Source: Bacteroidota bacterium (GTDB lineage: Bacteria > Bacteroidota > Bacteroidia > Bacteroidales > CAIXZF01). Taken from it: a DNA stretch of 64,000 nucleotides. The first letter of the stretch is position 1; each line of letters begins with the position of its first letter. The stretch is taken from NCBI GenBank assembly GCA_026391855.1, contig JAPLDE010000028.1, positions 297 to 64,296 of the forward strand, written 5' to 3'. A model generated the notes under the pieces. That model saw only the letters and a program-made list of their open reading frames with translations. It did no database searches and was not told where the DNA came from. The translations under genes were made by a program, and so were the position numbers. Of the stretch, positions 10,337-24,612 are shown in pieces.

Positions 10337-10420
10337 GCCCGGATGGCGGAATAGGTAGACGCGTTGGTCTCAAAAACCAATGAGCGAAAGCTCGTGCCGG
10401 TTCGATCCCGGCTCCGGGTA
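10337..10420 (+). tRNA. trnL-CAA: tRNA-Leu (anticodon CAA)
   Basis: Acceptor stem GCCCGGA/TCCGGGT, D-loop GGCGGAATAGGTAGACGC, anticodon arm TTGGT-CTCAAAA-ACCAA, long variable arm, T-loop GGTTCGATCCC. CCA is not encoded. Confidence 0.97.
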
Positions 10421-10424
10421 CCCT

Positions 10425-10471: not shown

Positions 10472-10844
10472 CATTTATCGGGCTCCTTTCAGGGTCCTCT
10501 AAAATAATTATAAAGTTGACCTAAGGTGCTGATTAAAAATACAATATGTGAATATTTTTCAAAAACTTAATACAAAGCGGATAGTTTTAGTTATTGATTT
10601 TCAGTAAGTTAATAAAATAGCAAGTAATAAGTGAGTATGCATTGAAGTTGGAAACAAAAAAAAATAAGTATGATATTCGCAATGTGATCTATTTTGTTAT
10701 AAATTTAGTGCCTCTTGAAGCTGAAGTTGCCTGCTTTGTGTCACCAATAATGGAATACTGCATTCCTTTAACCTGAACTGCTGCAGCACAGATAGTCTGA
10801 AATTTCAGTTTGAATATGGGTTTATCTAATAAATGGAGGTATTT

Positions 10845-11387
10845 ATGAAAGATGAAACATGCACACATTCCTGGGAAATGATGAATGTTCAGCCTGGTTT
10901 TATCATTACAGAGAACTGTTTTCGTTGCGATATGATTTCTACCTACTTTTCGCTGGAGGAACGGCCTCCACTGGAAGAATACAGAGAAGGTGATCATTTC
11001 TGGAATGTAATGGGAAGTGCGCAATCGATACGTTTCGATCTGAAATGCAGCAAATGTTCATATTTAATGACATTTGAAGAATTATGCGGTCTGATGATGT
11101 GTACCGGATGCGATGAAAAGTGTAAGATCTATAAACTTATGAAGGAATATGAGAAAGAACGAACATGGGTATACGTCGCTTTTGGTTATCTCCCGATTGA
11201 AGGCAGAAAAAAGCTAAGCCCTGAAAAGATTCTTGCTCTTGAACAATATTTCAATCAGCGGCGTAAATCTTCAACGTCAAAAATTAAGATTGTTTCCGAT
11301 GAACTTGTTGACAATATCAGGAATTGTTACGCAGAATTAATCAGGGACATCGATATGATTTCTTTGAAACCACCTGAAAATAAATAG
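10845..11387 (+). CDS. Cys-rich hypothetical protein, putative metal/Fe-S binding
   Basis: First gene of a tightly packed operon, with GGAGGT SD. Ten Cys including CxxC, CxxC and CxxCxxxC. Confidence 0.75.
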   Translation: MKDETCTHSWEMMNVQPGFIITENCFRCDMISTYFSLEERPPLEEYREGDHFWNVMGSAQSIRFDLKCSKCSYLMTFEELCGLMMCTGCDEKCKIYKLMKEYEKERTWVYVAFGYLPIEGRKKLSPEKILALEQYFNQRRKSSTSKIKIVSDELVDNIRNCYAELIRDIDMISLKPPENK

Positions 11388-11422
11388 ATTACAATAATTA
11401 ACCTTAATAGAGGAGAATTGCT

Positions 11423-11752
11423 ATGAAGCTTCAAGAAGTTATTGACAAACTCTCATTAAAAGCACTTACTGATGTGGAAGACAGAAATGTATCCGGAGTA
11501 CATATCTCTGACATGTTATCAGAAGTGATGAGCAGTGCGCAAAGTGAAAATCTGTGGTTAACCATTCAAACCCACAAAAACATTGTCTCGGCAGCTAACC
11601 TGATCGATATATCAGCAGTTATTGTTACTAATGGCAAGATAGTTCCGGAAGATACAATTGAATTGGCAAACCGTTACCATGTTAATATTTTGAGCTATCC
11701 GGAACCGGCTTTCAAACTGGTTAGCAAGTTGATTGAAGCAGGTATTCAATAA
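11423..11752 (+). CDS. Stand-alone DRTGG domain protein (HPr-kinase N-terminal-like)
   Basis: SDMLSEVM, LWLTIQTHKNIVSAA, AVIVTNGK. Confidence 0.85.
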   Translation: MKLQEVIDKLSLKALTDVEDRNVSGVHISDMLSEVMSSAQSENLWLTIQTHKNIVSAANLIDISAVIVTNGKIVPEDTIELANRYHVNILSYPEPAFKLVSKLIEAGIQ

Positions 11753-11767
11753 GAAGGAGCCTGCCCA

Positions 11768-12589
11768 ATGCTGGTTCAAACAACTCATAATATTGATATA
11801 GAGAAGATTGGGAAGTCGTTACAGGCAAATTTTATCGTTGGTCAACGTGATGATGCTCAATATACTTCAGGAATTTATGCTTCCGACCTGATGAGTGATG
11901 TACTTGCTTATGGTAAACCGGGTTCTGTTTTGTTGACCGGACTTAATACTATACAGGCGGTAATTTCTGCCTATATGGCTGAATTCAGGGGAATTATATT
12001 CCTAAGGAGTAAGGTGCCTGATGATGATATGATTGCCTTTGCCCGTGAAAAGGGATTGGTGGTTCTGACAACTGAAGAAGACATGTATGAAGCATGTGTG
12101 GAAATCGCCAATATTGAGTGTGAAGTAGCTGATATTAAAGATATTCATAAACCGGCAAAAAAAGTTGAGAATATTGCCACTTATAATTTTCATATCGATG
12201 GACATGACTTTGCCAGTGCGGGATTAGTATCGACACATATAAAAACGATCCTTAAATCAATCGGATATAATCCTTTGCTTATCAGAAGAGTTGCTATCTC
12301 AACCTACGAAGCTGAAATGAATGTGGTTATGCATGCAAAGAAGGCAGATGTCATGCTTACAACCTCAGAAAAAGAAATTCAGGTACTTATCCGTGATGAA
12401 GGAAAAGGCATTGAAGATATAGAATTAGCGATGAAGGAAGGATACTCCACTGCCACTGATGAACAGCGTGCAATGGGATTCGGAGCCGGAATGGGTTTGC
12501 CGAATATAAAAAGAAATACTGATAATCTGCAAATCGAAAGTCAAGTCGGGAAGGGAACTACTATTAACGCTGTTTTTTATGTGAAATGA
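11768..12589 (+). CDS. DRTGG domain fused to RsbT/RsbW-like anti-sigma Ser/Thr kinase (HATPase_c)
   Basis: N-terminal ASDLMSDVLA...LLTGL. C-terminal YEAEMNVVMHA (N box), DEGKGIEDIELAMKEGYST, GFGAGMGLPNIK, GKGT. Confidence 0.88.
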   Translation: MLVQTTHNIDIEKIGKSLQANFIVGQRDDAQYTSGIYASDLMSDVLAYGKPGSVLLTGLNTIQAVISAYMAEFRGIIFLRSKVPDDDMIAFAREKGLVVLTTEEDMYEACVEIANIECEVADIKDIHKPAKKVENIATYNFHIDGHDFASAGLVSTHIKTILKSIGYNPLLIRRVAISTYEAEMNVVMHAKKADVMLTTSEKEIQVLIRDEGKGIEDIELAMKEGYSTATDEQRAMGFGAGMGLPNIKRNTDNLQIESQVGKGTTINAVFYVK

Positions 12590-13860
12590 AATTTTATCAT
12601 TCACACCTTATATTGCACGAGAAATGTGCCGGGAGGACATTATGTATTAAAGCCTGTCCTACCCAGTCATTGAGATATAGAGACAATAAAATCCTGTTTT
12701 ATGACGACCTCTGTGTGGATTGCGGGGAGTGTATAAATGCCTGCCCGGAGGGTGTTTTTGTTCCTGTCATCGATGAAGTCAGTGATTTTGATAAGTTTAC
12801 GTTTAAAATTGCTGTCCCTTCCCGTGTATTTTATACTCAGTTCAGTGCCGATATACATCCAAAATTGATTCATCAGGCGCTAAAAAATATTGGATTTGAC
12901 GCTGTTGCAAACATCTCACAGGAAAGTCATGAACTTAGTTATGTCATTTCCGAGTATTTGAAGGTAAAAAAAGACGGTAAACCTATTATAGGGTCATTTT
13001 GCCCGGCAGTTATCCGGCTGATACTGGTAAATTATCCCAACCTGGTAGAATTAATCTCACCTTTCGATGTACCACTGGAATTAGCAGCAAAGAAATCGAA
13101 ATTAAGATATTCTAAGGAACTGGGAATCGACATTAAAAAGATAGGCGCCATTTATATCACTCCTTGTCCGGCCAAAGCTGTGTCCATCGCTCAACCGGCA
13201 GAAAAGGAAAAATCCTGGATTGACGGCACAATCTCTATTAAAGATATTTATAATATCATTCTTCCGGAAATACTCAGAATGCATGAAAATAATAAACAGG
13301 AAAGAGTGGAAGATTATTTCTATTACGGGAAAGGATGGGGTATCTTAAGTCATATATTACAGCACCTTGACTCAGAAAGATTTATGACAGTTAAAGGGAT
13401 TGATAATGTTAAGATGATCCTTAATGACATCGAAGACTCAAAATTAAAAAATGTGGACTATATTGAGGCGTTCACCTGTAATCAGGCTTGCATAGGCGGT
13501 GCATTTTGTGTTGAAAATCCCTATATTTCAAGGCATAATTCTATTCTTCTGGAAAAGAGATTTTGTGAACCTGGTGCTTTTAATCAGGATGAAATTATGA
13601 AAAAGCACCAGGAGAATTACTATTTTATGGAACACCATGTTGTTCCAAGAACTACTCGTGCTGCAACATCCAACCTTGCCATTTCCATTAAAAGAATGAA
13701 TCAGAAAGAGAGGATTCTTTCAAAATTACCAAAAAAGGATTGTGGATTATGCGGAGCGCCCACCTGTGAAACCTTCGCTCAGGATTGTGCCTGGGGTGAA
13801 GCTGATCTCACAGATTGTATCTTTTTTAGACAAATTTCTTCATTTAAGGATAATAAATAA
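12586..13860 (+). CDS. [FeFe]-hydrogenase large-subunit-like (Fe_hyd_lg_C) protein with N-terminal ferredoxin and C-terminal FeS domain; non-catalytic/sensory type
   Basis: Ferredoxin motifs CxxxxxCxxxCP and CVDCGEC. H-cluster-like motifs GSFCPAV, TPCPAK and EAFTCNQACIGG. C-terminal CGLCGAPTC...C. Confidence 0.85.
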   Translation: MKFYHSHLILHEKCAGRTLCIKACPTQSLRYRDNKILFYDDLCVDCGECINACPEGVFVPVIDEVSDFDKFTFKIAVPSRVFYTQFSADIHPKLIHQALKNIGFDAVANISQESHELSYVISEYLKVKKDGKPIIGSFCPAVIRLILVNYPNLVELISPFDVPLELAAKKSKLRYSKELGIDIKKIGAIYITPCPAKAVSIAQPAEKEKSWIDGTISIKDIYNIILPEILRMHENNKQERVEDYFYYGKGWGILSHILQHLDSERFMTVKGIDNVKMILNDIEDSKLKNVDYIEAFTCNQACIGGAFCVENPYISRHNSILLEKRFCEPGAFNQDEIMKKHQENYYFMEHHVVPRTTRAATSNLAISIKRMNQKERILSKLPKKDCGLCGAPTCETFAQDCAWGEADLTDCIFFRQISSFKDNK

Positions 13861-14318
13861 TGAAAAAAGCTGAAACATCCTTCTCAGAACTGCTTCAGTC
13901 ATTTCCGCCGGAAGAAGGAAGTATTATTCCCTTGCTTCAAAACGCTCAGGCAAGACTGGGATATATTCCAGAAGAAGCAGTAGAAGTTATTGCAGATTAC
14001 CTAAAACTAACTGAAAGTCAAATATTTGGAGTTGCATCCTTTTATTCTCAATTTCGTTTTACTGAACCTGGAAGACATTCTATTAGTGTATGCCTCGGAA
14101 CAGCCTGTCATGTGAATGGTGGCGCTACATTATTAGAAACCACTGAGAGAGAACTGAATGTCAAACCTGGTGAATGTACGGCCGACAAAAGATTTGACCT
14201 GAACCGTGTTGCCTGCCTGGGCTGTTGTGCCTTAGCCCCTGTTGTAAAAATCGACGGCGAGATTCACAGTAAGGTCAATGTTATCAACCTCAAGGAGATG
14301 TGGAATCACTATGATTAA
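13860..14318 (+). CDS. NuoE/HydC (BfuC)-like [2Fe-2S] subunit
   Basis: GVASFYSQF, VCLGTACH, VACLGCCALAPV. Confidence 0.92.
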   Translation: MKKAETSFSELLQSFPPEEGSIIPLLQNAQARLGYIPEEAVEVIADYLKLTESQIFGVASFYSQFRFTEPGRHSISVCLGTACHVNGGATLLETTERELNVKPGECTADKRFDLNRVACLGCCALAPVVKIDGEIHSKVNVINLKEMWNHYD

Positions 14319-16179
14319 TATTACGACATTACAAAAGAAAAGCCTTATTGAATGGGAGGCGTTAACCCATTCAAACGAACCAGTCATATACCTGGGCATG
14401 GCATCCTGTGGTAAAGCAGCGGGTGCCGAAAAAGTTAAGCAGGTAATTCTGGAGTCCCTCAAGGTTCACAGTATCAATGCAAAACTGATAGAGGTAGGCT
14501 GTGTGGGAACCTGTTACCTGGAACCTATTATGGATATCAGAGCTTTTGGCTGGCCACGTATCTCATATGGCAATGTGGATGAAAAAAGAGCAGAATACAT
14601 CATCCAAAAACACCTGGTCGAACGGAATCTTTCCAAAACCAAACCCCTTGGATATCTGGGCAATGTTCCTTTTGATAATATTCCCCCTTTCTCTGAACAG
14701 CCGATGCTGAAACCTCAGGTTCGTATTGTAACGAGAAACTGTGGGATTATTGATCCGGAAAATATTCATCACTACCTGGCAAATGAAGGTTATTCAGGTA
14801 TTGCGAAAGCACTGAAGATGACCCCGTTAGAAGTCATAGAGGAGATTACTTCTGCAGGACTCAGGGGGCGTGGAGGTGCAGGGTTTCTGACCGGAAGGAA
14901 ATGGCGTACATGCTATGATACCCAATCTGATGTTAAGTATTTGATTTGTAACGCTGATGAAGGTGACCCCGGAGCTTTTATGAACCGCCTTCTGATCGAA
15001 AGCGATCCTCATGCCGTGCTGGAAGGGATGCTGATAGCTGCCTATGCTATTGGTGCTACCCTGGGATATATTTATATCCGTGCCGAATACCCGCTGGCAA
15101 TCAAACGATTGCAAAATGCAATTGAGCAGATGCATAAATATGGACTACTGGGAGATAACATTCTTGGTTCAACGTTTTCCTTCTCATTAAAAATCAAGGA
15201 AGGAGCTGGTGCCTTTGTTTGTGGAGAAGAAACCGCACTGATTCATTCTATAGAAGGAAAAAGAGGAATGCCACGGACCAGACCACCTTTCCCCGCCGTC
15301 TCAGGTTTACATCAGAAGCCTACTGTCATTAATAATGTTGAAACCCTTGGGACTGTGGCTCAAATTATCAGAAACGGAGCTCAATGGTATCGCCAATATG
15401 GGATCGAAGGCAATTATGGGACCAAAACCTTTTCACTGGTAGGCAAGGTGAGAAGGTCGGGATTAATAGAGGTTCCCCTGGGAACACCGCTTCGCAAAAT
15501 TATTTTCGATATTGGCGGTGGTACCGTGAAACCCTTTAAAGCGGTACAAACAGGAGGCCCCTCCGGAGGATGTATCCCGCTGGAACTCCTTGATACTCCG
15601 GTTACTTATGAAACACTTGCCTCTATTGGATCCATTATGGGTTCAGGAGGACTGATTGTAATGGACCAGGACACATGCGTGGTAGATGTGGCAAGATATT
15701 TCCTGGATTTCATCCAGAAAGAATCTTGTGGAAAATGTACTCCATGCAGGGTTGGAACAAGGCATATGGTTGAAATACTTGAGAATATCTGCCATGGTGA
15801 AGCCAGTGCAGATCAGTTGGACAACCTGGAAACCCTGGCAAAACTGGTTCAGTCAACCTCATTATGTCAGCTGGGACAAACCGCTCCAAACCCTGTTCTT
15901 ACCACTTTGCGCTATTTCCGGTCGGAATATGTTCAACACATCAATGAATATTACTGTCCGGCCCTGGTTTGTAGCTCTCTTATCGAATATACGGTAATTA
16001 AGGAGAAATGTACCGGGTGCCAGAGATGCGTGAGTGTTTGTCCTACTGAGGCTATTACAGGTCCAAGGTCTGAGCCTCATAACCTCGATCCTTCAAAATG
16101 TATTAAGTGCCGGTCATGTTATGAAATATGCCGTTTCGACGCCATTGCAGGTAACGCTATTGTCATCACCTCGAAATAG
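14311..16179 (+). CDS. NuoF/HydB (BfuB)-like FMN/NADH-binding subunit with N-terminal thioredoxin-like [2Fe-2S] domain and C-terminal 2x[4Fe-4S]
   Basis: GLRGRGGAGF, NADEGDPG, GAFVCGEETAL, ESCGKCTPCR, SLCQLG, HINEYYCPALVC, two ferredoxin motifs. Start placed at ATG 14311. Confidence 0.93.
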   Translation: MINITTLQKKSLIEWEALTHSNEPVIYLGMASCGKAAGAEKVKQVILESLKVHSINAKLIEVGCVGTCYLEPIMDIRAFGWPRISYGNVDEKRAEYIIQKHLVERNLSKTKPLGYLGNVPFDNIPPFSEQPMLKPQVRIVTRNCGIIDPENIHHYLANEGYSGIAKALKMTPLEVIEEITSAGLRGRGGAGFLTGRKWRTCYDTQSDVKYLICNADEGDPGAFMNRLLIESDPHAVLEGMLIAAYAIGATLGYIYIRAEYPLAIKRLQNAIEQMHKYGLLGDNILGSTFSFSLKIKEGAGAFVCGEETALIHSIEGKRGMPRTRPPFPAVSGLHQKPTVINNVETLGTVAQIIRNGAQWYRQYGIEGNYGTKTFSLVGKVRRSGLIEVPLGTPLRKIIFDIGGGTVKPFKAVQTGGPSGGCIPLELLDTPVTYETLASIGSIMGSGGLIVMDQDTCVVDVARYFLDFIQKESCGKCTPCRVGTRHMVEILENICHGEASADQLDNLETLAKLVQSTSLCQLGQTAPNPVLTTLRYFRSEYVQHINEYYCPALVCSSLIEYTVIKEKCTGCQRCVSVCPTEAITGPRSEPHNLDPSKCIKCRSCYEICRFDAIAGNAIVITSK

Positions 16180-16184
16180 GAAGA

Positions 16185-18509
16185 ATGAACCTTACTATTA
16201 ATAACAGAACCATTCAGATCGAAAAAGCGGTCACGGTTCTAGAAGCCGCAGAAAAGAACGATATCTACATTCCCAAAATGTGTGCACATCCGGAACTAAC
16301 TCCATATGGAGGCTGCCGGTTATGTATTGTGGAAATTGACGGAAGGAGAGGATATCCGACTGCCTGTACTACAATGGCTGAAGAAGGAATGACGGTCAGA
16401 ACAGACACGAAAATCCTTCGCGAGATGCGGGAGAACCTGCTTCAGTTGATTCTCAGCGAACATCCTTCAGCTTGTCTTTTATGTGAAGATATTGATGGGT
16501 GCAAAGAGTTTCAGAGTACCATCAGGAAGGTAGGTATTACCACCGGTTGCCGATGGTGTCCCAAGGACAGGGACTGTGAATTGCAAAAGATAGTAGAAAG
16601 TTTTAACATTCATCAGCTTACACTGCCCGGACTGTACAGGGATTTACCTATTGAAAAGTATGATCCCTTTTTCGACAGGGATTATAATCTTTGTATTTAT
16701 TGTGGCCGTTGTGTGAGGATATGCAGTGAATACCGGAAAAGCTCAGTACTGGCACTAAAACAGAGAGGGAAGCAAACCACGATTGGTCCTGCTTTCACTG
16801 ACAATCATACGGACGCCGGCTGTGAATACTGTGGAGCTTGTGTTTCAGTTTGCCCAACAGGTGCTATGTCAGAAAAAAGCCGAAAGTGGTGGGGTGTTCC
16901 GGAATCCTATGTGCAATCTGTTTGCCCTTTATGTAGCCTGAACTGTGAAATACAGGTTCTTACAGCTAAAAATAAAATTGTCGGCACTTTACCCCCGGGG
17001 TTACCCCATGAGTCTGCCGGGGATTTGTGTGTAAAAGGACGGTTTTGTCTGAGTGAACTTGTGAACCGAACGGAAAGAATACTGGAACCAATATATCTTT
17101 TTCCGGAAGGTAACGGTATTGTTGTATGGGATCAGGCTATTGATAAAGCGGAATTAATATTGAGCAACATTCAGACGGAAAGAACAGCGGTCTTTCTTTC
17201 ACCTGATTTATCGACGGAAGAATATGAGGCTGTCCGGTTATTTTCGGAAAAAGTGCTGAAGACCAGTGAAATCACTTCGTCATGTTTTGATAGCAATCTG
17301 ATTGCATTCTCACGGATGGCCATGAAATCTGCATCCATTGAAACAGTTAAGGATGCCGGGGTGATTCTTTCCTTTTTTCTGAATGGCAATTACAATTATG
17401 GTCCTCTTACCCTGGCCATTAAAACAGCTTCAGATAATGGGGTTCCATACTACCAGACAGGTTGGATCAAAGACACTACTTCCCGCTTCGCCAGGCATAG
17501 GTTTGTTCCTGTTCCGGGGGAAGAAGTATCGATTCTTGATGAAATACTGAAATGTCTTAAAGATGGAAAAACCAACAAACCCGAAATCCTTGAACTCTCA
17601 GATTATCTTATAAAAGCAGGAAAAGGAATAATAGTAGCCGGACCTGAAATGATGTCACTGAGCAATTGTCAGCTGTTACTCGAAAAAATTGAAACCCTGG
17701 CAATTATCACCAAATCTCAGATTTTCATGCCCTTACCTTATGGAAATCTCAAAGGAATGCTTTCTGTTATTCAACTTAAACCTTTTGAAGACGTTCTTAA
17801 TAAAGTTGAAAAAGGTAAATTTGATTTGCTTTATTTTATCGGAGATGCACCTTTCTCATCAAGACCAGAGGTAAAATATATACTTTACCAGAATTCATTC
17901 CCTGCACCTGAAGGACTAAACCCTGATCTTGTCTTACCTGCCGCACTTTGGGGCGAGACCGGAGGTACCTGGGCTGGATCAAATGGTCATTCCCAGCCTG
18001 TTGTAGCTGCAGCTCTTCCTCATAATTATGCCCTCTCACACCAGGAAATATTGATCAAACTGGCAGAAAAAATGCAGAATAAAGAGTTTGTAACTGATGC
18101 TAAAAACCTTATTAGCGGGAGTTTAAAAGCAAAAAAGCCAATGCTTCCGGCTTTAAAAGAGGTTCAGAAAATCACTGTTCCATCGAAACCTGATCCTGAT
18201 TTTCCCTATGTGCTGGTTGAGGAAATATCACCCCATCGTTATCACAACCTGAACCTCAGTAAAGGGATCAGCGGTTTCGGAGAACTGGTCAGAACAGATC
18301 AACTGATGATGAATCCGTCAGATGCGCGAAAACTTAAGATTAAAGACGGGGACTCCGTCGAAGTCGTTAATAAAAAGATAATAAAGACACTTCCTGTCAC
18401 TATCAGGAAAAACATAACTGAAGGATTTATCCATCTGAACACTTCAAACGGAATGAGGGGATTTGATTGCAATCCCTGTTACGTAGATATAAGGAGGGTC
18501 CATGTTTAA
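16185..18509 (+). CDS. NuoG/FdhA-like Fe-S subunit with degenerate molybdopterin-oxidoreductase domain
   Basis: [2Fe-2S] C..GGCRLC..TAC, His-ligated cluster HPSAC, 2x[4Fe-4S], CPLCSLNC...LCVKG, C-terminal Molydop_binding-like domain. No RxC/UH catalytic motif and no H-cluster. Confidence 0.85.
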   Translation: MNLTINNRTIQIEKAVTVLEAAEKNDIYIPKMCAHPELTPYGGCRLCIVEIDGRRGYPTACTTMAEEGMTVRTDTKILREMRENLLQLILSEHPSACLLCEDIDGCKEFQSTIRKVGITTGCRWCPKDRDCELQKIVESFNIHQLTLPGLYRDLPIEKYDPFFDRDYNLCIYCGRCVRICSEYRKSSVLALKQRGKQTTIGPAFTDNHTDAGCEYCGACVSVCPTGAMSEKSRKWWGVPESYVQSVCPLCSLNCEIQVLTAKNKIVGTLPPGLPHESAGDLCVKGRFCLSELVNRTERILEPIYLFPEGNGIVVWDQAIDKAELILSNIQTERTAVFLSPDLSTEEYEAVRLFSEKVLKTSEITSSCFDSNLIAFSRMAMKSASIETVKDAGVILSFFLNGNYNYGPLTLAIKTASDNGVPYYQTGWIKDTTSRFARHRFVPVPGEEVSILDEILKCLKDGKTNKPEILELSDYLIKAGKGIIVAGPEMMSLSNCQLLLEKIETLAIITKSQIFMPLPYGNLKGMLSVIQLKPFEDVLNKVEKGKFDLLYFIGDAPFSSRPEVKYILYQNSFPAPEGLNPDLVLPAALWGETGGTWAGSNGHSQPVVAAALPHNYALSHQEILIKLAEKMQNKEFVTDAKNLISGSLKAKKPMLPALKEVQKITVPSKPDPDFPYVLVEEISPHRYHNLNLSKGISGFGELVRTDQLMMNPSDARKLKIKDGDSVEVVNKKIIKTLPVTIRKNITEGFIHLNTSNGMRGFDCNPCYVDIRRVHV

Positions 18510-19290
18510 AATCGTTGAGCGAAAAATGATCGTCCCAAATTTGCACCTTCTTGTAGTGCATGCACCTGAAGTAGCCAATACGATACGACCAGGGCAGTTT
18601 GTTATACTTCATGCAGGGGAAGGTGCAGAAAGAATACCTCTTACTGCAGCCGATTGGGACAGAGAGGAAGGTACACTAACAGTCATTTTTATGGAAGTGG
18701 GTACTTCCACCGGGAAGCTGGCGATGCTAAAGGCTGGTGACCAGATACCTACAGTTGTTGGTCCGTTAGGTGTACCAATGGAAATGAGGAATTTCGGTAC
18801 GGTAGTATGCATTGGCGGCTGTTTTGGCATGGGTTCCATTTTGCCTGTTGTCAGAGAATTAAAGGAAAATGGGAATAAAGTAATTACCATACTTGAAGGC
18901 AGGAGCAAAAATCTTTTATACTGGGAAGAGAAGTTGTCAAAATACAGCGACAAGGTGATCAGGTTAACCAGAGACGGAAGCACAGGCTACAAGGGTCATG
19001 TTAAGAAGGGCAATGAAATCCTTAAGGAGATGAATATCATTCCCGACCGGATTATCGCTATGGGTTGTACAACCTTATCTTATCTGGCTACAAGGGATTA
19101 CGCTCATTATAATGTACCCATAATCATTACCCTCAACACCATTATGATTGATGGAACCGGTATGTGTGGTGTTTGCCGGTGCACTATCGACGGGCACATG
19201 AAATTTGCCTGTGTTGATGGCCCGACATCATTCCGGATGTGGAGGATTTTAACATGGAAGAAACAAAATCAAGGAAACGTGAGAGGGTAG
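18502..19290 (+). CDS. nfnA: NfnA/SudB (ferredoxin:NADP+ oxidoreductase small subunit); C-terminus disrupted by an apparent deletion at ~19225
   Basis: PGQFVI, ERIPLT, GPLG, DGTGMCGVCRC...CVDGP. The expected EFD continuation is missing, and HHSGCGGF-stop appears in another frame (19226-19252). Confidence 0.85.
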   Translation: MFKIVERKMIVPNLHLLVVHAPEVANTIRPGQFVILHAGEGAERIPLTAADWDREEGTLTVIFMEVGTSTGKLAMLKAGDQIPTVVGPLGVPMEMRNFGTVVCIGGCFGMGSILPVVRELKENGNKVITILEGRSKNLLYWEEKLSKYSDKVIRLTRDGSTGYKGHVKKGNEILKEMNIIPDRIIAMGCTTLSYLATRDYAHYNVPIIITLNTIMIDGTGMCGVCRCTIDGHMKFACVDGPTSFRMWRILTWKKQNQGNVRG

Positions 19291-20672
19291 AAATGCCCAA
19301 ACAGGCACCTTTCATCAGGAAAAGAAATTTTCAAGAGGTTGCACTGGGATATACAAAGGAAATGGCAGTAGATGAAGCCAGCCGCTGCCTTGCCTGTAAA
19401 AAACCGCTTTGTGTGGAAGGCTGTCCTGTGGAAATCGATATTCCGGGTTTCATTAAATGTATAGCCACCAATGATTTTTCAGCTGCCATAAGGAAGCTGA
19501 AAGAAAAAAATTGTTTACCGGCAGTTTGCGGCAGAGTATGTCCACAGGAAGAACAATGTGAAATAAAATGCATAGTTGGGAAAAAAGGATCTCCTGTCGC
19601 TATTGGTCGCCTCGAACGTTTTGCCGCTGAATGGGAAGCTTCTCAAACAATAATGGAATTACCTGAAATAAAAACGAAAACGGGTAAAAATGTACTGGTT
19701 GTCGGTTCAGGCCCTGCGGGTATTACTGTTGCCGGCGACCTGATCCTTGCGGGACATGAGGTGACCATGCTCGAAGCACTTCATGAACCCGGCGGAGTCC
19801 TTTCCTATGGGATCCCAGAATTCCGCCTTCCCGGCAAAATTGTCAGCAGGGAGATTGAATATCTTCAAAAACTCGGAGTAAAGCTTATCTGTAACTATGT
19901 TGTAGGTAAAACCAAATCTTTGTCTGATCTTTTAAATGAGTATGATGCTGCTTTCATCGGCACAGGTGCAGGTCTTCCGTGGTTTATGGAAATACCGGGA
20001 GAAAATCTGAACGGAGTATATTCCGCCAATGAATATCTTACCCGCGTTAACTTAATGAGAGGATATCAGTATCCTAAAACTTATACGCCGGTTATCCGAC
20101 ATCGGAGAGTGGCAGTAGTGGGTGGTGGAAATGTTGCCATGGATTGCGCCCGGACTGCACTTCGTTTAGGTGCTGAAGAGGTTTATATTGTATACAGAAG
20201 ATCCCGGAATGAACTGCCCGCCAGGCTTGAGGAGTTCGAAAATGCCGAAGAAGAGGGAGTGATCTTCCATTTTCTTACGCTGCCTGTAAAATTAATTGGA
20301 GATGAAGAGGGCTGGCTTAAAGAAATTGAATGCCTGAAAATGGAGCTTGGAGAACCGGATCAATCCGGGAGAAGAAAACCGGTTCCATTGGCAGGTTCAG
20401 AATTCAGAATGAGGATGGATGCTTGTATTGTTGCTATCGGTAACAGTCCTAATCCTATTATCCCCACTACAACTCCCAATCTGGAGGTTTCAAAAAAAGG
20501 TACCATTATCGTTGATGAAAATACAGGTAAAACCTCTATCGACCGCGTGTGGGCAGGGGGCGATATTGTTACCGGAGCTGCAACAGTGATTCTGGCGATG
20601 GGTGCCGGTCGTAAAGCTGCACGGTCGATGCACGCCTATTTAACCAATGGTATTGTTTCAACAGGAGGCTAA
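19254..20672 (+). CDS. nfnB: NfnB/SudA large subunit (GltD-like; often annotated gltA, NADPH-dependent glutamate synthase)
   Basis: RCLACKKPLCVEGCP, CGRVCPQEEQCE, VGSGPAG, VVGGGNVAMDCAR, YRR, AGGDIVTGAATVILAM. Start placed at ATG 19254. Confidence 0.9.
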   Translation: MEETKSRKRERVEMPKQAPFIRKRNFQEVALGYTKEMAVDEASRCLACKKPLCVEGCPVEIDIPGFIKCIATNDFSAAIRKLKEKNCLPAVCGRVCPQEEQCEIKCIVGKKGSPVAIGRLERFAAEWEASQTIMELPEIKTKTGKNVLVVGSGPAGITVAGDLILAGHEVTMLEALHEPGGVLSYGIPEFRLPGKIVSREIEYLQKLGVKLICNYVVGKTKSLSDLLNEYDAAFIGTGAGLPWFMEIPGENLNGVYSANEYLTRVNLMRGYQYPKTYTPVIRHRRVAVVGGGNVAMDCARTALRLGAEEVYIVYRRSRNELPARLEEFENAEEEGVIFHFLTLPVKLIGDEEGWLKEIECLKMELGEPDQSGRRKPVPLAGSEFRMRMDACIVAIGNSPNPIIPTTTPNLEVSKKGTIIVDENTGKTSIDRVWAGGDIVTGAATVILAMGAGRKAARSMHAYLTNGIVSTGG

Positions 20673-22806: not shown

Positions 22807-24612
22807 TTAATTTCTGGCGGTATTTTGGGTGTGTGAAACAAAAGAACTCGTGTGTTCATTCATTTCCATGATCGTACCGGTAATGGCTTTCATGCTCTCG
22901 CTGACCTCCATGCTCAGTTTTTCTGCATCGTAAAATTGCGTGGAGGCACTATTAATTTTTATGTTGATCTGTTTAAAGAGCATCGCAATGGTTTCCAGAT
23001 AAGGTTTGATCTTATCGGCTTCATTATGTGAATTCTCGGCTAATCGTTTTACCTCGCTGGCCACTACTGCAAAACCACGGCCATGCTCACCGGCCCGGGC
23101 AGCTTCAATGGCAGCATTCAGGGCAAGCAGATTGGTTTGCTTGGCAATGGTGCTGATGGTTTCTATTATCTTGGTGAATTCACCAAGCATATCGGATTTA
23201 GAATTTACAGATTCCAGCAATCCCAGGAATTCAGCATTTAATTTGTTGGTAAGTGTATGCATTTTATCAATAAACACACTTATGGTAAAACTCTGTGTAT
23301 CAAGCTGTTCCGCTGTTACGGAAACATTACCCGCAAGTTCACCAACAATGGTGGCATTATAATAAAAGCAATTTTCTTTCTTGTTCAGTCCGTTATGAAT
23401 GGCAGTTGCCATATGGTCGCAGGAATTATATCCACAGGAAGCACAATTCAAAAAATCTGATGGCTTGATTTTTTTCATGCTGAGATAAATACTCTGTCTT
23501 TCTCTTTCGGTAGGTTCAATAACTACATTATTTTCAGATAGATCCGAATATTCTCTTTTATATAGTTCAGGAGCCCAGTAATGGTCCAGTATGCGGTTTA
23601 CCTTTTTCTTATTTGAGTACTGCTTTTGCGCCAGTTTATTACGTTTTTCAACGAAATATTCTATTTTATCGATGGGTTCCTCCAGGTTCAGCGTGCCAGG
23701 CCCGCCATTACATCCTTTATGACAATTCAGGCAATCGATCAGAACAGGCGCTCTTCCGTGAGAAATTTCTTCCGGTAAAGAAGTGAAATAATCATAAACA
23801 TATTCTTTACCTTCAATTTTCCTGGAAATTTTAGCGATATCCGGAACCTCTCTTTCAGCAGTTCTCAAAAGGCCTCCGGGCAAAGAAAACAAAACAGCCC
23901 TTTCGGCAGGCGGGTTATCATAATCCGTTTCGGCATATTTATTCAGATCAATCTCGTTTTCATCGATAAATTGCTTCAGGGACCTGATAGTGACATTATA
24001 ATCTCCGAGGCCAACTTCATCAAATTCTCGGCGCTTTGCCACACAGGGCGAGATGACGGCAATTTTATGCTGACGGTATTGCGGATAAAACTGTTTTATC
24101 ATTTTCATCGTGTGCATCATCGGGCTATCAGCAGGGGCAAGATATTTAAGCAGGGACGGACGATAAATTTCAAGGTAGGTGACAATGGCCGGACAGGGTT
24201 GTGAAATGATGGCTCTTGGTTTATTGTCGTGTAAATGAGCAAGATATGATTTGATGGTAAGTTCGGCGCCAAAACTAACGTCAAAATTTGCCTCCACACC
24301 CATACTTTTCAGCAGGCCATTTATACGAAGATACTGTTCGGGAAAGTTGGATGCGATAGCCGGAGCCACTATAGCGATCATTTTTACCCCGTTTCCCAAG
24401 TTCTCGAGAAATGTCTCCGTATCGTCCAGGTAATAGCGGGCTTCGTGGGTACAAACTGCGATGCAGGCGCCACAGGCTATACACATATCATTGTTTACCT
24501 GCACATAATCACCGCTGCCGTTGTTACAGTATTTTATCGGGCAGGCAGCAATGCATTTATGGCAATTAACGCATTTTTCTTTATCGACTTCTAAAACATG
24601 ACTTAATTTCAT
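22807..24612 (-). CDS. Cytoplasmic [FeFe]-hydrogenase-like sensor fused to methyl-accepting chemotaxis signalling domain (group C-type)
   Basis: 2x[4Fe-4S], [29 protein letters not shown], FeS domain [12 protein letters not shown] hairpin [30 protein letters not shown]. No transmembrane segment seen. Confidence 0.9.

Follow-up and report, generated by a model that had tools for sequence, protein, structure and literature searches.

The stretch of DNA analysed here, called the window below, comprises 64,000 nucleotides of contig JAPLDE010000028.1 (assembly GCA_026391855.1) of a Bacteroidota bacterium. An earlier note, made from its letters alone, singled out positions 13860-20672 as a bifurcating BfuBC core with a catalytically empty alpha subunit, joined to the transhydrogenase genes nfnA and nfnB. 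This region most likely encodes the enzyme part of a nine-gene operon (10833-20672) that is self-contained and horizontally mobile. The nine genes all lie on the + strand, neighbours overlap or stand at most 35 nucleotides (nt) apart, and the next gene downstream of nfnB is on the opposite strand. The earlier note was right about the five enzyme genes, but the conserved unit counts nine, with a HydS-like putative sensor cassette ahead of them. The features of the locus are as follows.

10833-11387, + strand: Cys-rich protein of 184 residues, first gene of the operon, without Pfam or NCBIfam match
11423-11752, + strand: DRTGG-domain protein of 109 residues (Pfam DRTGG / Hpr_kinase_N)
11768-12589, + strand: DRTGG + HATPase_c protein (Pfam HATPase_c, DRTGG and HATPase_c_2; TIGR01925, spoIIAB-like)
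12586-13860, + strand: HydS-like protein of 424 residues (N-terminal Fer4, Fe_hyd_lg_C, C-terminal PF04060)
13860-14318, + strand: BfuC, NuoE/HydC-like (PF01257 at 5.7e-44)
14278-16179, + strand: BfuB, NuoF/HydB-like, with a site for flavin mononucleotide (FMN) and nicotinamide adenine dinucleotide, NAD(H), the B1 motif and a C-terminal Fer4 pair
15676-15972, + strand: five-ligand "B2" motif of BfuB, by spacing and alignment with A. mobile HydB
16185-18509, + strand: BfuA, NuoG/FdhA-fold, 774 residues, by Pfam, NCBIfam, PDB sequence matches and an AlphaFold model
16548-16577, + strand: extra Cx2Cx5C of BfuA (C122/C125/C131), by conservation in homologues
17274-17297, + strand: TSSCFDSN, residues 364-371 of BfuA, at the position of the Cys/selenocysteine (Sec)-His dyad of formate dehydrogenases
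18492-18509, + strand: bfuA/nfnA junction, with AGGAGG at 18492-18497, the nfnA ATG at 18502-18504 and the bfuA TAA at 18507-18509
18502-19290, + strand: nfnA (NfnS), with ERIPLT and the Asp + 3 Cys ligands of a [2Fe-2S] cluster
19239-20672, + strand: nfnB (NfnL), with [4Fe-4S] motifs and Rossmann domains for flavin adenine dinucleotide (FAD) and NADPH

The genes are tightly joined. The start of bfuB is more likely at 14311 than at 14278, which gives a ATGATTAA overlap with bfuC. The HydS-like gene overlaps bfuC by 1 nt in the window, the corresponding spacing being -4 to +13 nt in most related loci, and the gene of the DRTGG-kinase overlaps the HydS-like gene by 4 nt in most loci. The bfuA stop and the nfnA start share 8 nt, the window reading AGGAGG-N4-ATGTTTAA, and nfnB comes next, in agreement with the earlier statement that both nfn genes directly follow the trio. 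No nuo membrane genes were found in the operon among the open reading frames of the window or by domain search. Strong Shine-Dalgarno sequences stand ahead of internal starts (AGGAGG at 18492-18497, AGGAG at 14294-14298), and a tRNA-Leu gene is located at 10337-10422, upstream of the block.

Bifurcating-type core and an alpha subunit predicted to lack a catalytic site

BfuC carries the ligands of the C1 [2Fe-2S] cluster (C78/C83/C119/C123), and these Cys are kept in 23 loci. In BfuB, the ligands of the "B2" site are C467, C505, H554, C560 and C565. Their spacing (+38/+87/+93/+98) is exactly that of A. mobile HydB (C438/C476/H525/C531/C536; Schut 2022), as the earlier note had stated, and in a HMMER alignment with 7t2r_B each residue falls on its A. 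mobile counterpart. The second ligand is Cys and not Thr, within a family pattern (Cys, Cys/Thr, His, Cys, Cys) that spans the B1 motif. The site is occupied by Zn in the structures from C. saccharolyticus, T. sibiricus and S. ovata, and Zn is now expected in the A. mobile enzyme also, according to its authors (PMC11829005). The ligand set read earlier as "B2" can be kept, but not its sense of a redox centre: since the site is now assigned to Zn, the motif is probably a good family marker and not a redox cluster. BfuB also presents the two bifurcating signatures GDPGAFM and GAGAFVCGE, for which the window reads CNADEGDPGAFMNR and EGAGAFVCGEETALI; in Supplementary Fig. 10 of Schut 2022, DEGDPGAFM and GAGAFVCGEE tell bifurcating NuoF homologues apart from non-bifurcating ones. 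The C-terminal 2x[4Fe-4S] domain seen before is recovered by the domain search as a Fer4 pair of B3/B4 type at residues 572-622, and is presumed to be the ferredoxin site. The protein is not a member of a complex I N-module (NuoEFG), as both the bifurcating signatures and the Fer4 domain, which NuoF lacks, are present. Judged by the hallmarks checked in their sequences, BfuC and BfuB are a genuine Bfu-type bifurcating core.

The closest solved relatives of BfuB are C. saccharolyticus NfnB (9bov_B, 731 bits), T. sibiricus NfnB (9n5u_B), S. ovata StnB (8oh5_B) and A. mobile HydB (7t2r_B). A position nested within the known Nfn-Bfu clade had been expected and was rejected, the bit-score ranking (731, 714, 700, 686) being only a weak lead. 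Of the classification among the Bfu subclasses that the earlier note had proposed, membership of the family is supported by the hallmarks found, and nesting in the known Nfn-Bfu clade is not supported. In one relative, from a fen Bacteroidales (L026:4802-7945), BfuB has 1047 residues and carries a Stn-type (circularly permuted) NfnL/GltD-like FAD domain in place of the C-terminal 2x[4Fe-4S]; bfuA, nfnA and nfnB still come after it.

BfuA was aligned with 24 homologues from related loci and with 119 homologues from a protein collection. All the ligands of its iron-sulfur chain are invariant in both sets: those of a [2Fe-2S] cluster (C33/44/47/61), of the His cluster (H93/C97/C100/C106), of two ferredoxin-type clusters (C170/173/176/180 and C213/216/219/223) and of a MopB-type cluster (C247/250/254/282). 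The additional C122/C125/C131 are likewise invariant (119/119), as is H208, so that the chain and the extra Cys in the His-cluster loop pointed out by the earlier note both hold throughout the family. The three Cys resemble a tandem copy of the CxxCx5C-ELQ loop of the His cluster, and are candidates both for an additional cluster or metal site and for the place where NfnL docks. Two possible fourth ligands were considered. One, a Cys in the tail of NfnA (HHSGCGG), was dropped, as the Bellilinea homologue has no tail Cys; the other, H208, was weakened, as Gln stands at this position in a sister lineage that shares the three Cys.

This sister lineage, which also carries the extra Cx2Cx5C, consists of two Bfu clusters, L068 (G048:C315) and L069 (G060:C300), with BfuC and BfuB 54-64% identical to those of the window. 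Its alpha subunit, which has 861 residues in G048 and is truncated by a contig end in G060, shows a clear PF00384 fold and the same double CxxCx5C, and lacks the Cys/Sec-His dyad. In G048, genes for a toxin-type nucleotidyltransferase and a YhcG nuclease stand between bfuB and bfuA, and no nfnAB is adjacent; in G060 an nfnAB pair lies upstream, divergent, 1.3 kb away.

In BfuA, the Pfam search found no Fe_hyd_lg_C domain, in line with the absence of an H-cluster noted earlier, and no Pyr_redox or Fer4_20 domain in its 774 residues. BfuA could nevertheless be a working molybdo- or tungsto-pterin enzyme, for instance a formate dehydrogenase, in an Fdh-Bfu complex that merely lies beside nfnAB. 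Such a role would be in keeping with its MopB fold, with its nearest folds, which are alpha subunits of FdsA-type formate dehydrogenases together with NuoG (TM-scores, i.e. template modelling scores, of 0.62-0.70), and with the precomputed PF00384 match of many BfuA homologues. However, the window BfuA itself has no PF00384 match at E<0.001. Its TSSCFDSN segment aligns with the NN[VI]D...C/U-H region, at the FdhF position given by the earlier note, and the His is missing; C367 within it is present in only 50 of the 119 homologues, the others having V, I or Y, and no in-frame TGA is found in bfuA. In the sister lineage the same segment reads SNNVDLLSSYPD. No Cys or His is conserved across the 119 homologues in the MopB-like part, which is also the least conserved one: the C-terminal 470 residues show 26-61% conservation, versus 66-84% for the iron-sulfur part. 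With phmmer, BfuA does not align with FdsA past residue 322, except for a weak C-terminal stretch of 48 residues (704-751), yet it aligns with the StnC domain, a MopB-type domain termed catalytically inactive by Kumar et al.; this domain and NuoG are its best matches. The AlphaFold model has a mean predicted local distance difference test (pLDDT) score of 79, and exceeds 90 in most of the MopB part. We consider a catalytic pterin site in BfuA extremely improbable. That BfuA is catalytically empty is well supported by these comparisons, and the protein is most likely an iron-sulfur wire only, predicted to have a NuoG/FdhA fold with neither an H-cluster nor a molybdenum site.

The NfnS/NfnL pair and its linkage to the core

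Compared with T. maritima NfnB (4ylf_B), the operon NfnB reaches 574 bits at 57% identity; with the fused Nfn-Bfu alpha subunits it reaches only 288-341 bits. The two motifs used as criteria in PMC6405883, RCx2Cx4Cx3CPV and GRVCPQExQCx3C, read RCLACKKPLCVEGCPV and GRVCPQEEQCEIKC in the window, the latter conforming to GRVCPQEEQCx3C and being of the Glu-ligand type. The hallmarks of PMC12221290, namely nfnA directly upstream, an extended N-terminus, Arg333 (P. furiosus numbering) and an R201 equivalent, are found as well: the equivalent of R333 lies in ...NELPAR and that of R201 in YGIPEFRLP, and the extended N-terminus aligns from residue 2 of the T. maritima protein. NfnA can be aligned to P. 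furiosus NfnS and T. maritima NfnA, and contains the FAD motif ERIPLT (ERxPxT) and the Asp + 3 Cys ligands in DGTGMCGVCRC...FAC. On the strength of these hallmarks NfnB is a canonical NfnL, and NfnA fits NfnS with altered nucleotide-binding motifs. The Glu-ligand motif, the R201 and R333 equivalents and the upstream nfnA mean that the operon NfnAB is not Stn-like. The earlier note had hesitated between an unfused Stn-like transhydrogenase and a combination of two bifurcation chemistries; the alpha subunit is indeed unfused, but the partner pair is canonical NfnSL.

In the window, nfnA quits the conserved frame after ...CVDGP, where its relatives have 27 further codons. Eighty nt are missing between 19225 and 19226. 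They are present in contigs from three public runs (X1, X4 and X5) that are otherwise identical to the window, and a loose end in X2 reads ...QYVDEEAFLV. The restored NfnA has 276 residues and ends in HHSGCGGF. Because three contigs carry the 80 letters, nfnA is intact in the population and the apparent frameshift is an artefact, a gap in the window assembly. A true frameshift, a pseudogene and an NfnAB fusion of PRK12778 type were rejected for the same reason and because NfnA of the relatives also has 276 residues, with HHSGCGG as its ending.

The operon was searched for in a genome scan using one genome per species, which gave 27 loci, 26 of them clear relatives. Among the 23 that run beyond bfuA, nfnA and nfnB come next in 22, and the remaining one (L007) stops inside nfnA. 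The nfnA-linked loci include Bacteroidota, two loci from Aminicenantes and a locus from Bellilinea (Chloroflexota) with only 33% identity in BfuA. Of the 23 scan loci having both genes, 22 show the same 8-nt overlap between bfuA and nfnA. All four upstream genes are present too in 18 loci, and one Aminicenantes locus has a different order. The genes flanking the block vary: two more distant homologues, looked up by identity in metagenomes (one on a 1.3-Mb contig, one labelled Armatimonadetes), have the same nine genes between unrelated flanks. Taking these two together with 21 loci of the scan, nfnA is the next gene in all 23 related loci with sequence beyond bfuA, while two other loci end within nfnA or bfuA. 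In a maximum-likelihood tree of NfnB, the 23 operon-linked proteins form one clade (100/98), outside which stand 25 stand-alone Bacteroidales NfnB and those of T. maritima and P. furiosus; inside it Bellilinea branches first, followed by Aminicenantes and then Bacteroidota. Since the operon-linked NfnB form a single separate clade, the bfu-nfn association evidently arose once, and has since been passed on as a unit, by inheritance and by transfer. The operon is rare, with a patchy distribution. Close BfuA were found neither in six genomes of the same genus or family nor in 54 genomes of other Bacteroidales families, and metagenomes contain at least 118 distinct full-length BfuA homologues, all with generic annotation only. 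The strong Shine-Dalgarno sequences, the place of the block behind a tRNA gene and its absence from close relatives fit an acquisition from outside Bacteroidota.

It is worth mentioning that the same genome also contains a stand-alone nfnAB (contig C105), a fused Stn-type locus (C130) and three HydABC-like loci. With a separate nfnAB and a fused Stn-type enzyme at hand, the operon nfnAB is neither the housekeeping nor the sole transhydrogenase of this organism. Contigs C130, C107, C136, C214 and C44 of this genome (G000) together show a large Bfu repertoire, unusual for a Bacteroidales genome, including a BfuCB + NfnL-like locus on C107, and the genome has in addition a non-bifurcating-looking NuoEFG-like trio. 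The stand-alone NfnB (L035, C105:41249-44842) has an N-terminal extension of about 150 residues with repeated CxxC zinc-ribbon-like units, and a paralogous 303-residue protein with similar CxxC repeats is encoded upstream of its nfnA. The NfnB clade of L035, L041, L042 and L064 belongs to the sister group of the operon-linked clade.

The linkage could simply reflect co-regulation of redox balancing, the operon encoding two separate enzymes: a stand-alone NfnSL and an "orphan" BfuABC, the latter either finding its partner elsewhere in the genome or acting as a plain ferredoxin/NADH oxidoreductase. NfnB and NfnA retain the canonical cofactor motifs checked and look self-sufficient, BfuB falls outside the Nfn-Bfu clade, and the sister lineage with the same alpha-subunit motif has no adjacent nfnAB in G048, all of which is compatible with two enzymes. 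A free BfuABC without a third-substrate site, however, has no known precedent. Moreover, the bfuA-nfnA order and the identical 8-nt overlap persist across at least four phyla despite changing flanks, a separate nfnAB already exists in the genome, and the operon proteins are a specialised lineage, with about 19 clade-specific positions in NfnB and about 25 clade-specific substitutions in NfnS. (A clustering of the NfnL changes at the ferredoxin-facing iron-sulfur domain was considered and rejected, the 19 positions being spread over the entire protein.) Two independent enzymes are, in our opinion, an unlikely explanation, although one to be kept in mind. The earlier proposal that core, empty alpha subunit and NfnAB make one unit is strongly backed by comparative evidence; for the physical association of the five subunits and for their reaction, it remains at what can be inferred from sequence. 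None of the findings that the earlier note named as contrary to it, namely a formate-oxidising alpha subunit with molybdenum or tungsten, ligands that fail to align, or nfnAB acting independently of the trio in most homologous loci, was made at the sequence level. There is good support for the locus as a conserved genetic unit; as an enzyme it is a prediction.

The probable sensor cassette upstream

Of the four upstream genes, the first encodes a protein with a double zinc-ribbon pattern (C10/H12/C29/C32 and C72/C75/C90/C93), found at 49-70% identity in 19 related loci and in each of them first of the block. The DRTGG gene keeps its position in related loci as well. The DRTGG + HATPase_c protein is assigned by its domain matches to the anti-sigma-F/RsbT-type serine kinase fold. 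The HydS-like protein retains the four Cys of the [4Fe-4S]H cluster (C139, C194, C298 and C302), and stands ahead of an enzyme without a hydrogenase site. This protein could be the catalytic H2 module of an H2-linked Bfu enzyme working with H2, NAD(H), ferredoxin and NADP(H). Its H-cluster [4Fe-4S] ligands and accessory clusters are kept in 20 loci, its gene is directly upstream of bfuC and accompanies the enzyme genes in most loci, and FdhFeFe-Bfu offers a case of separate H-cluster subunits. But Phe replaces the proton-relay Cys (GSFCP), the score against catalytic hydrogenase models is 99 bits for a curated cut-off of 450 bits, and no HydS-like match was present in the upstream sequence fetched for the Bellilinea (L024) and one Aminicenantes (L020) locus. 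The company of a DRTGG-kinase and a DRTGG protein suggests signalling, and group C3 sensory hydrogenases have been reported to be encoded beside A3 bifurcating hydrogenases (PMC11406978). A catalytic role in H2 turnover appears very unlikely to us. The HydS-like protein looks like a sensor forming a regulatory module with the DRTGG-kinase and the DRTGG protein, and the four upstream genes together probably make expression or activity of the enzyme dependent on H2 or redox state. A second protein with the H-cluster fold (601 residues, PF02906 match) is encoded at 22807-24612 on the - strand, about 2 kb past the operon.

Predicted enzyme and related systems

The reading that we favour, and regard as fairly probable, is that of a Bfu enzyme of Nfn type, split into "ABCSL" subunits, whose third substrate is NADP(H) and which may have two bifurcation sites in series. 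The BfuBC core needs a third-substrate site and BfuA offers none, which leaves the NADP(H)/FAD site of NfnL as the only candidate in the operon. This site would be supplied by a separate, specialised but otherwise canonical NfnS/NfnL pair docking on BfuA near the His cluster and the extra Cx2Cx5C, and the five proteins would form a complex interconverting NADPH with NADH plus ferredoxin. The docking place is suggested by a Rosetta-stone argument: in StnC and in the NfnA subunits from C. saccharolyticus and T. sibiricus, the NfnL-like domain sits as an insert immediately behind the HxxxC of the His cluster, which is the position of the extra Cx2Cx5C in BfuA. In Stn/NfnABC this domain passes electrons via its two [4Fe-4S] clusters into the alpha-subunit chain (PMC10482914).

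Two modes of action can be envisaged for such a complex. The enzyme may be functionally Stn-like. Alternatively, as NfnL keeps the bifurcating-FAD hallmarks checked and NfnS has been retained, the low-potential branch of NfnSL may feed BfuA. The five subunits would then be a tandem bifurcating machine with two sites in series, switched by the H2-sensing HydS-like/DRTGG-kinase cassette; we hold this more elaborate possibility to be rather improbable. In such a machine the FAD of NfnL would split the electrons of NADPH, the high-potential electron would exit through NfnS, and the low-potential one would go to BfuA instead of ferredoxin, to be bifurcated again at the flavin/cluster site of BfuBC. 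By our own arithmetic, the net reaction would be 4 NADPH + 3 NAD+ + 2 Fd(ox) = 4 NADP+ + 3 NADH + 2 Fd(red), Fd being ferredoxin. Its "gear ratio" would differ from the 2:1:2 of Nfn and Stn, and could in principle drive an acceptor to about -680 mV, or yield four NADPH per ferredoxin pair.

Several observations weigh against a single five-subunit enzyme or against its tandem operation. The extra Cx2Cx5C is not limited to NfnAB-linked operons, since it occurs in the sister Bfu lineage (G048 and G060). In the model of BfuA the pLDDT falls below 50 at residues 92-206, in the iron-sulfur region, where the model is unreliable and for this reason uninformative on the extra Cys site. Operon-type, Nfn-type and NiFe/FeFe-type BfuB form a polytomy in the BfuB tree. 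The clade-specific changes in the nucleotide domain of NfnS include GGGxG to GGC[FY]G, [DN]DGS to RDGS, GP to GC and MxK to LxY, and because they fall in nucleotide-binding motifs, they may have altered its NAD(H) site. A comparable case is P. furiosus NfnII, with an occluded NAD(H) site (PMC12221290), although the residues concerned differ. A canonical NfnSL is a complete enzyme alone, and the two modules could be co-expressed without contact. None of the RNA runs looked at for co-transcription contains the locus. Finally, the two-stage stoichiometry (3 NADH + 2 reduced Fd : 4 NADPH) would poise NADP at about -335 mV, calculated by us from the physiological potentials in Schut 2022, which is unfavourable for NADPH formation.

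The literature treats NfnSL and Stn/NfnABC as unrelated answers to one problem. The two are nearly mutually exclusive in acetogens (PMC7483475), and each species of Thermococcaceae has either Nfn or the Stn-type enzyme (PMC12018979). By hard-wiring a complete NfnSL pair to a BfuABC core without a third-substrate site, the operon indicates that both systems have been combined in nature. In Supplementary Table 1 of Schut 2022, Type 1 "ABC" is the only form of Nfn-Bfu given, and our literature searches on NuoEFG/HydBC + NfnAB clusters found no paper describing this arrangement. If the five proteins form one complex, they would add a new "ABCSL" type to the Bfu classification, a possible evolutionary intermediate toward the fused Stn alpha subunit, and a system with two bifurcating centres in series whose stoichiometry can be tested. 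A hydrogenase-like sensor cassette placed before a non-hydrogenase enzyme also provides a route to study what such sensors control.

The nearest known systems are the Type 1 Stn/NfnABC enzymes (S. ovata, C. saccharolyticus and T. sibiricus; 8OH5, 9BOV and 9N5U). They share with the operon a NuoE/NuoF-type core with the same signatures, their BfuB being the best-scoring solved relatives of the window BfuB (700-731 bits), a NuoG/FdhF-fold alpha subunit with an inactive MopB domain, and a GltD/NfnL-type FAD module for NADP(H). In contrast to the situation here, their alpha subunit contains this NfnL-like module by fusion, the module has a non-bifurcating FAD, and no NfnA homologue is present (PMC10482914). 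Residues 102-565 of StnC have no counterpart in BfuA, the alignments jumping from about 100 to about 568-570. StnC has a strictly conserved Lys ligand (K170) on the FAD-proximal cluster (PMC10482914); where the window NfnB reads CPQExQCE, the fused enzymes read CPx--xCE. NfnAB/NfnSL of T. maritima (4YLF) and P. furiosus (5JCA) are alike in the order of nfnA and nfnB, in the motifs and R201/R333 equivalents and in the extended N-terminus. The operon pair differs from them by its constant place downstream of bfuCBA with a start/stop overlap, by forming its own clade, and by an NfnS with altered nucleotide-binding motifs and a distinctive C-terminal ...EEAFLVHHSGCGG tail.

The NiFe-HydABCSL enzyme of A. 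mobile (Type 3 Bfu, 7T2R) offers an architectural precedent for the proposed complex, as it likewise has a catalytically empty NuoG-like scaffold with separate catalytic subunits. Its HydA shows the highest identity (23%) among the structural neighbours of BfuA, and its BfuB shares the Cys as second "B2" ligand. Its extra subunits, however, are a [NiFe] hydrogenase, whereas in the operon this place is taken by two flavoproteins that together constitute a bifurcating enzyme of their own. A proposed precedent for BfuABC wired to a second bifurcating flavin module, in that case HdrA, is the Bam-Bfu benzoyl-CoA reductase (BamBCDEFGHI; Schut et al. 2022); the second module and the substrates are different from those considered here, and the Bam mechanism is itself unproven. 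The [FeFe]-hydrogenase HydABC, lastly, has its H-cluster in the alpha subunit, whereas in the operon only the separate HydS-like protein has the H-cluster fold.

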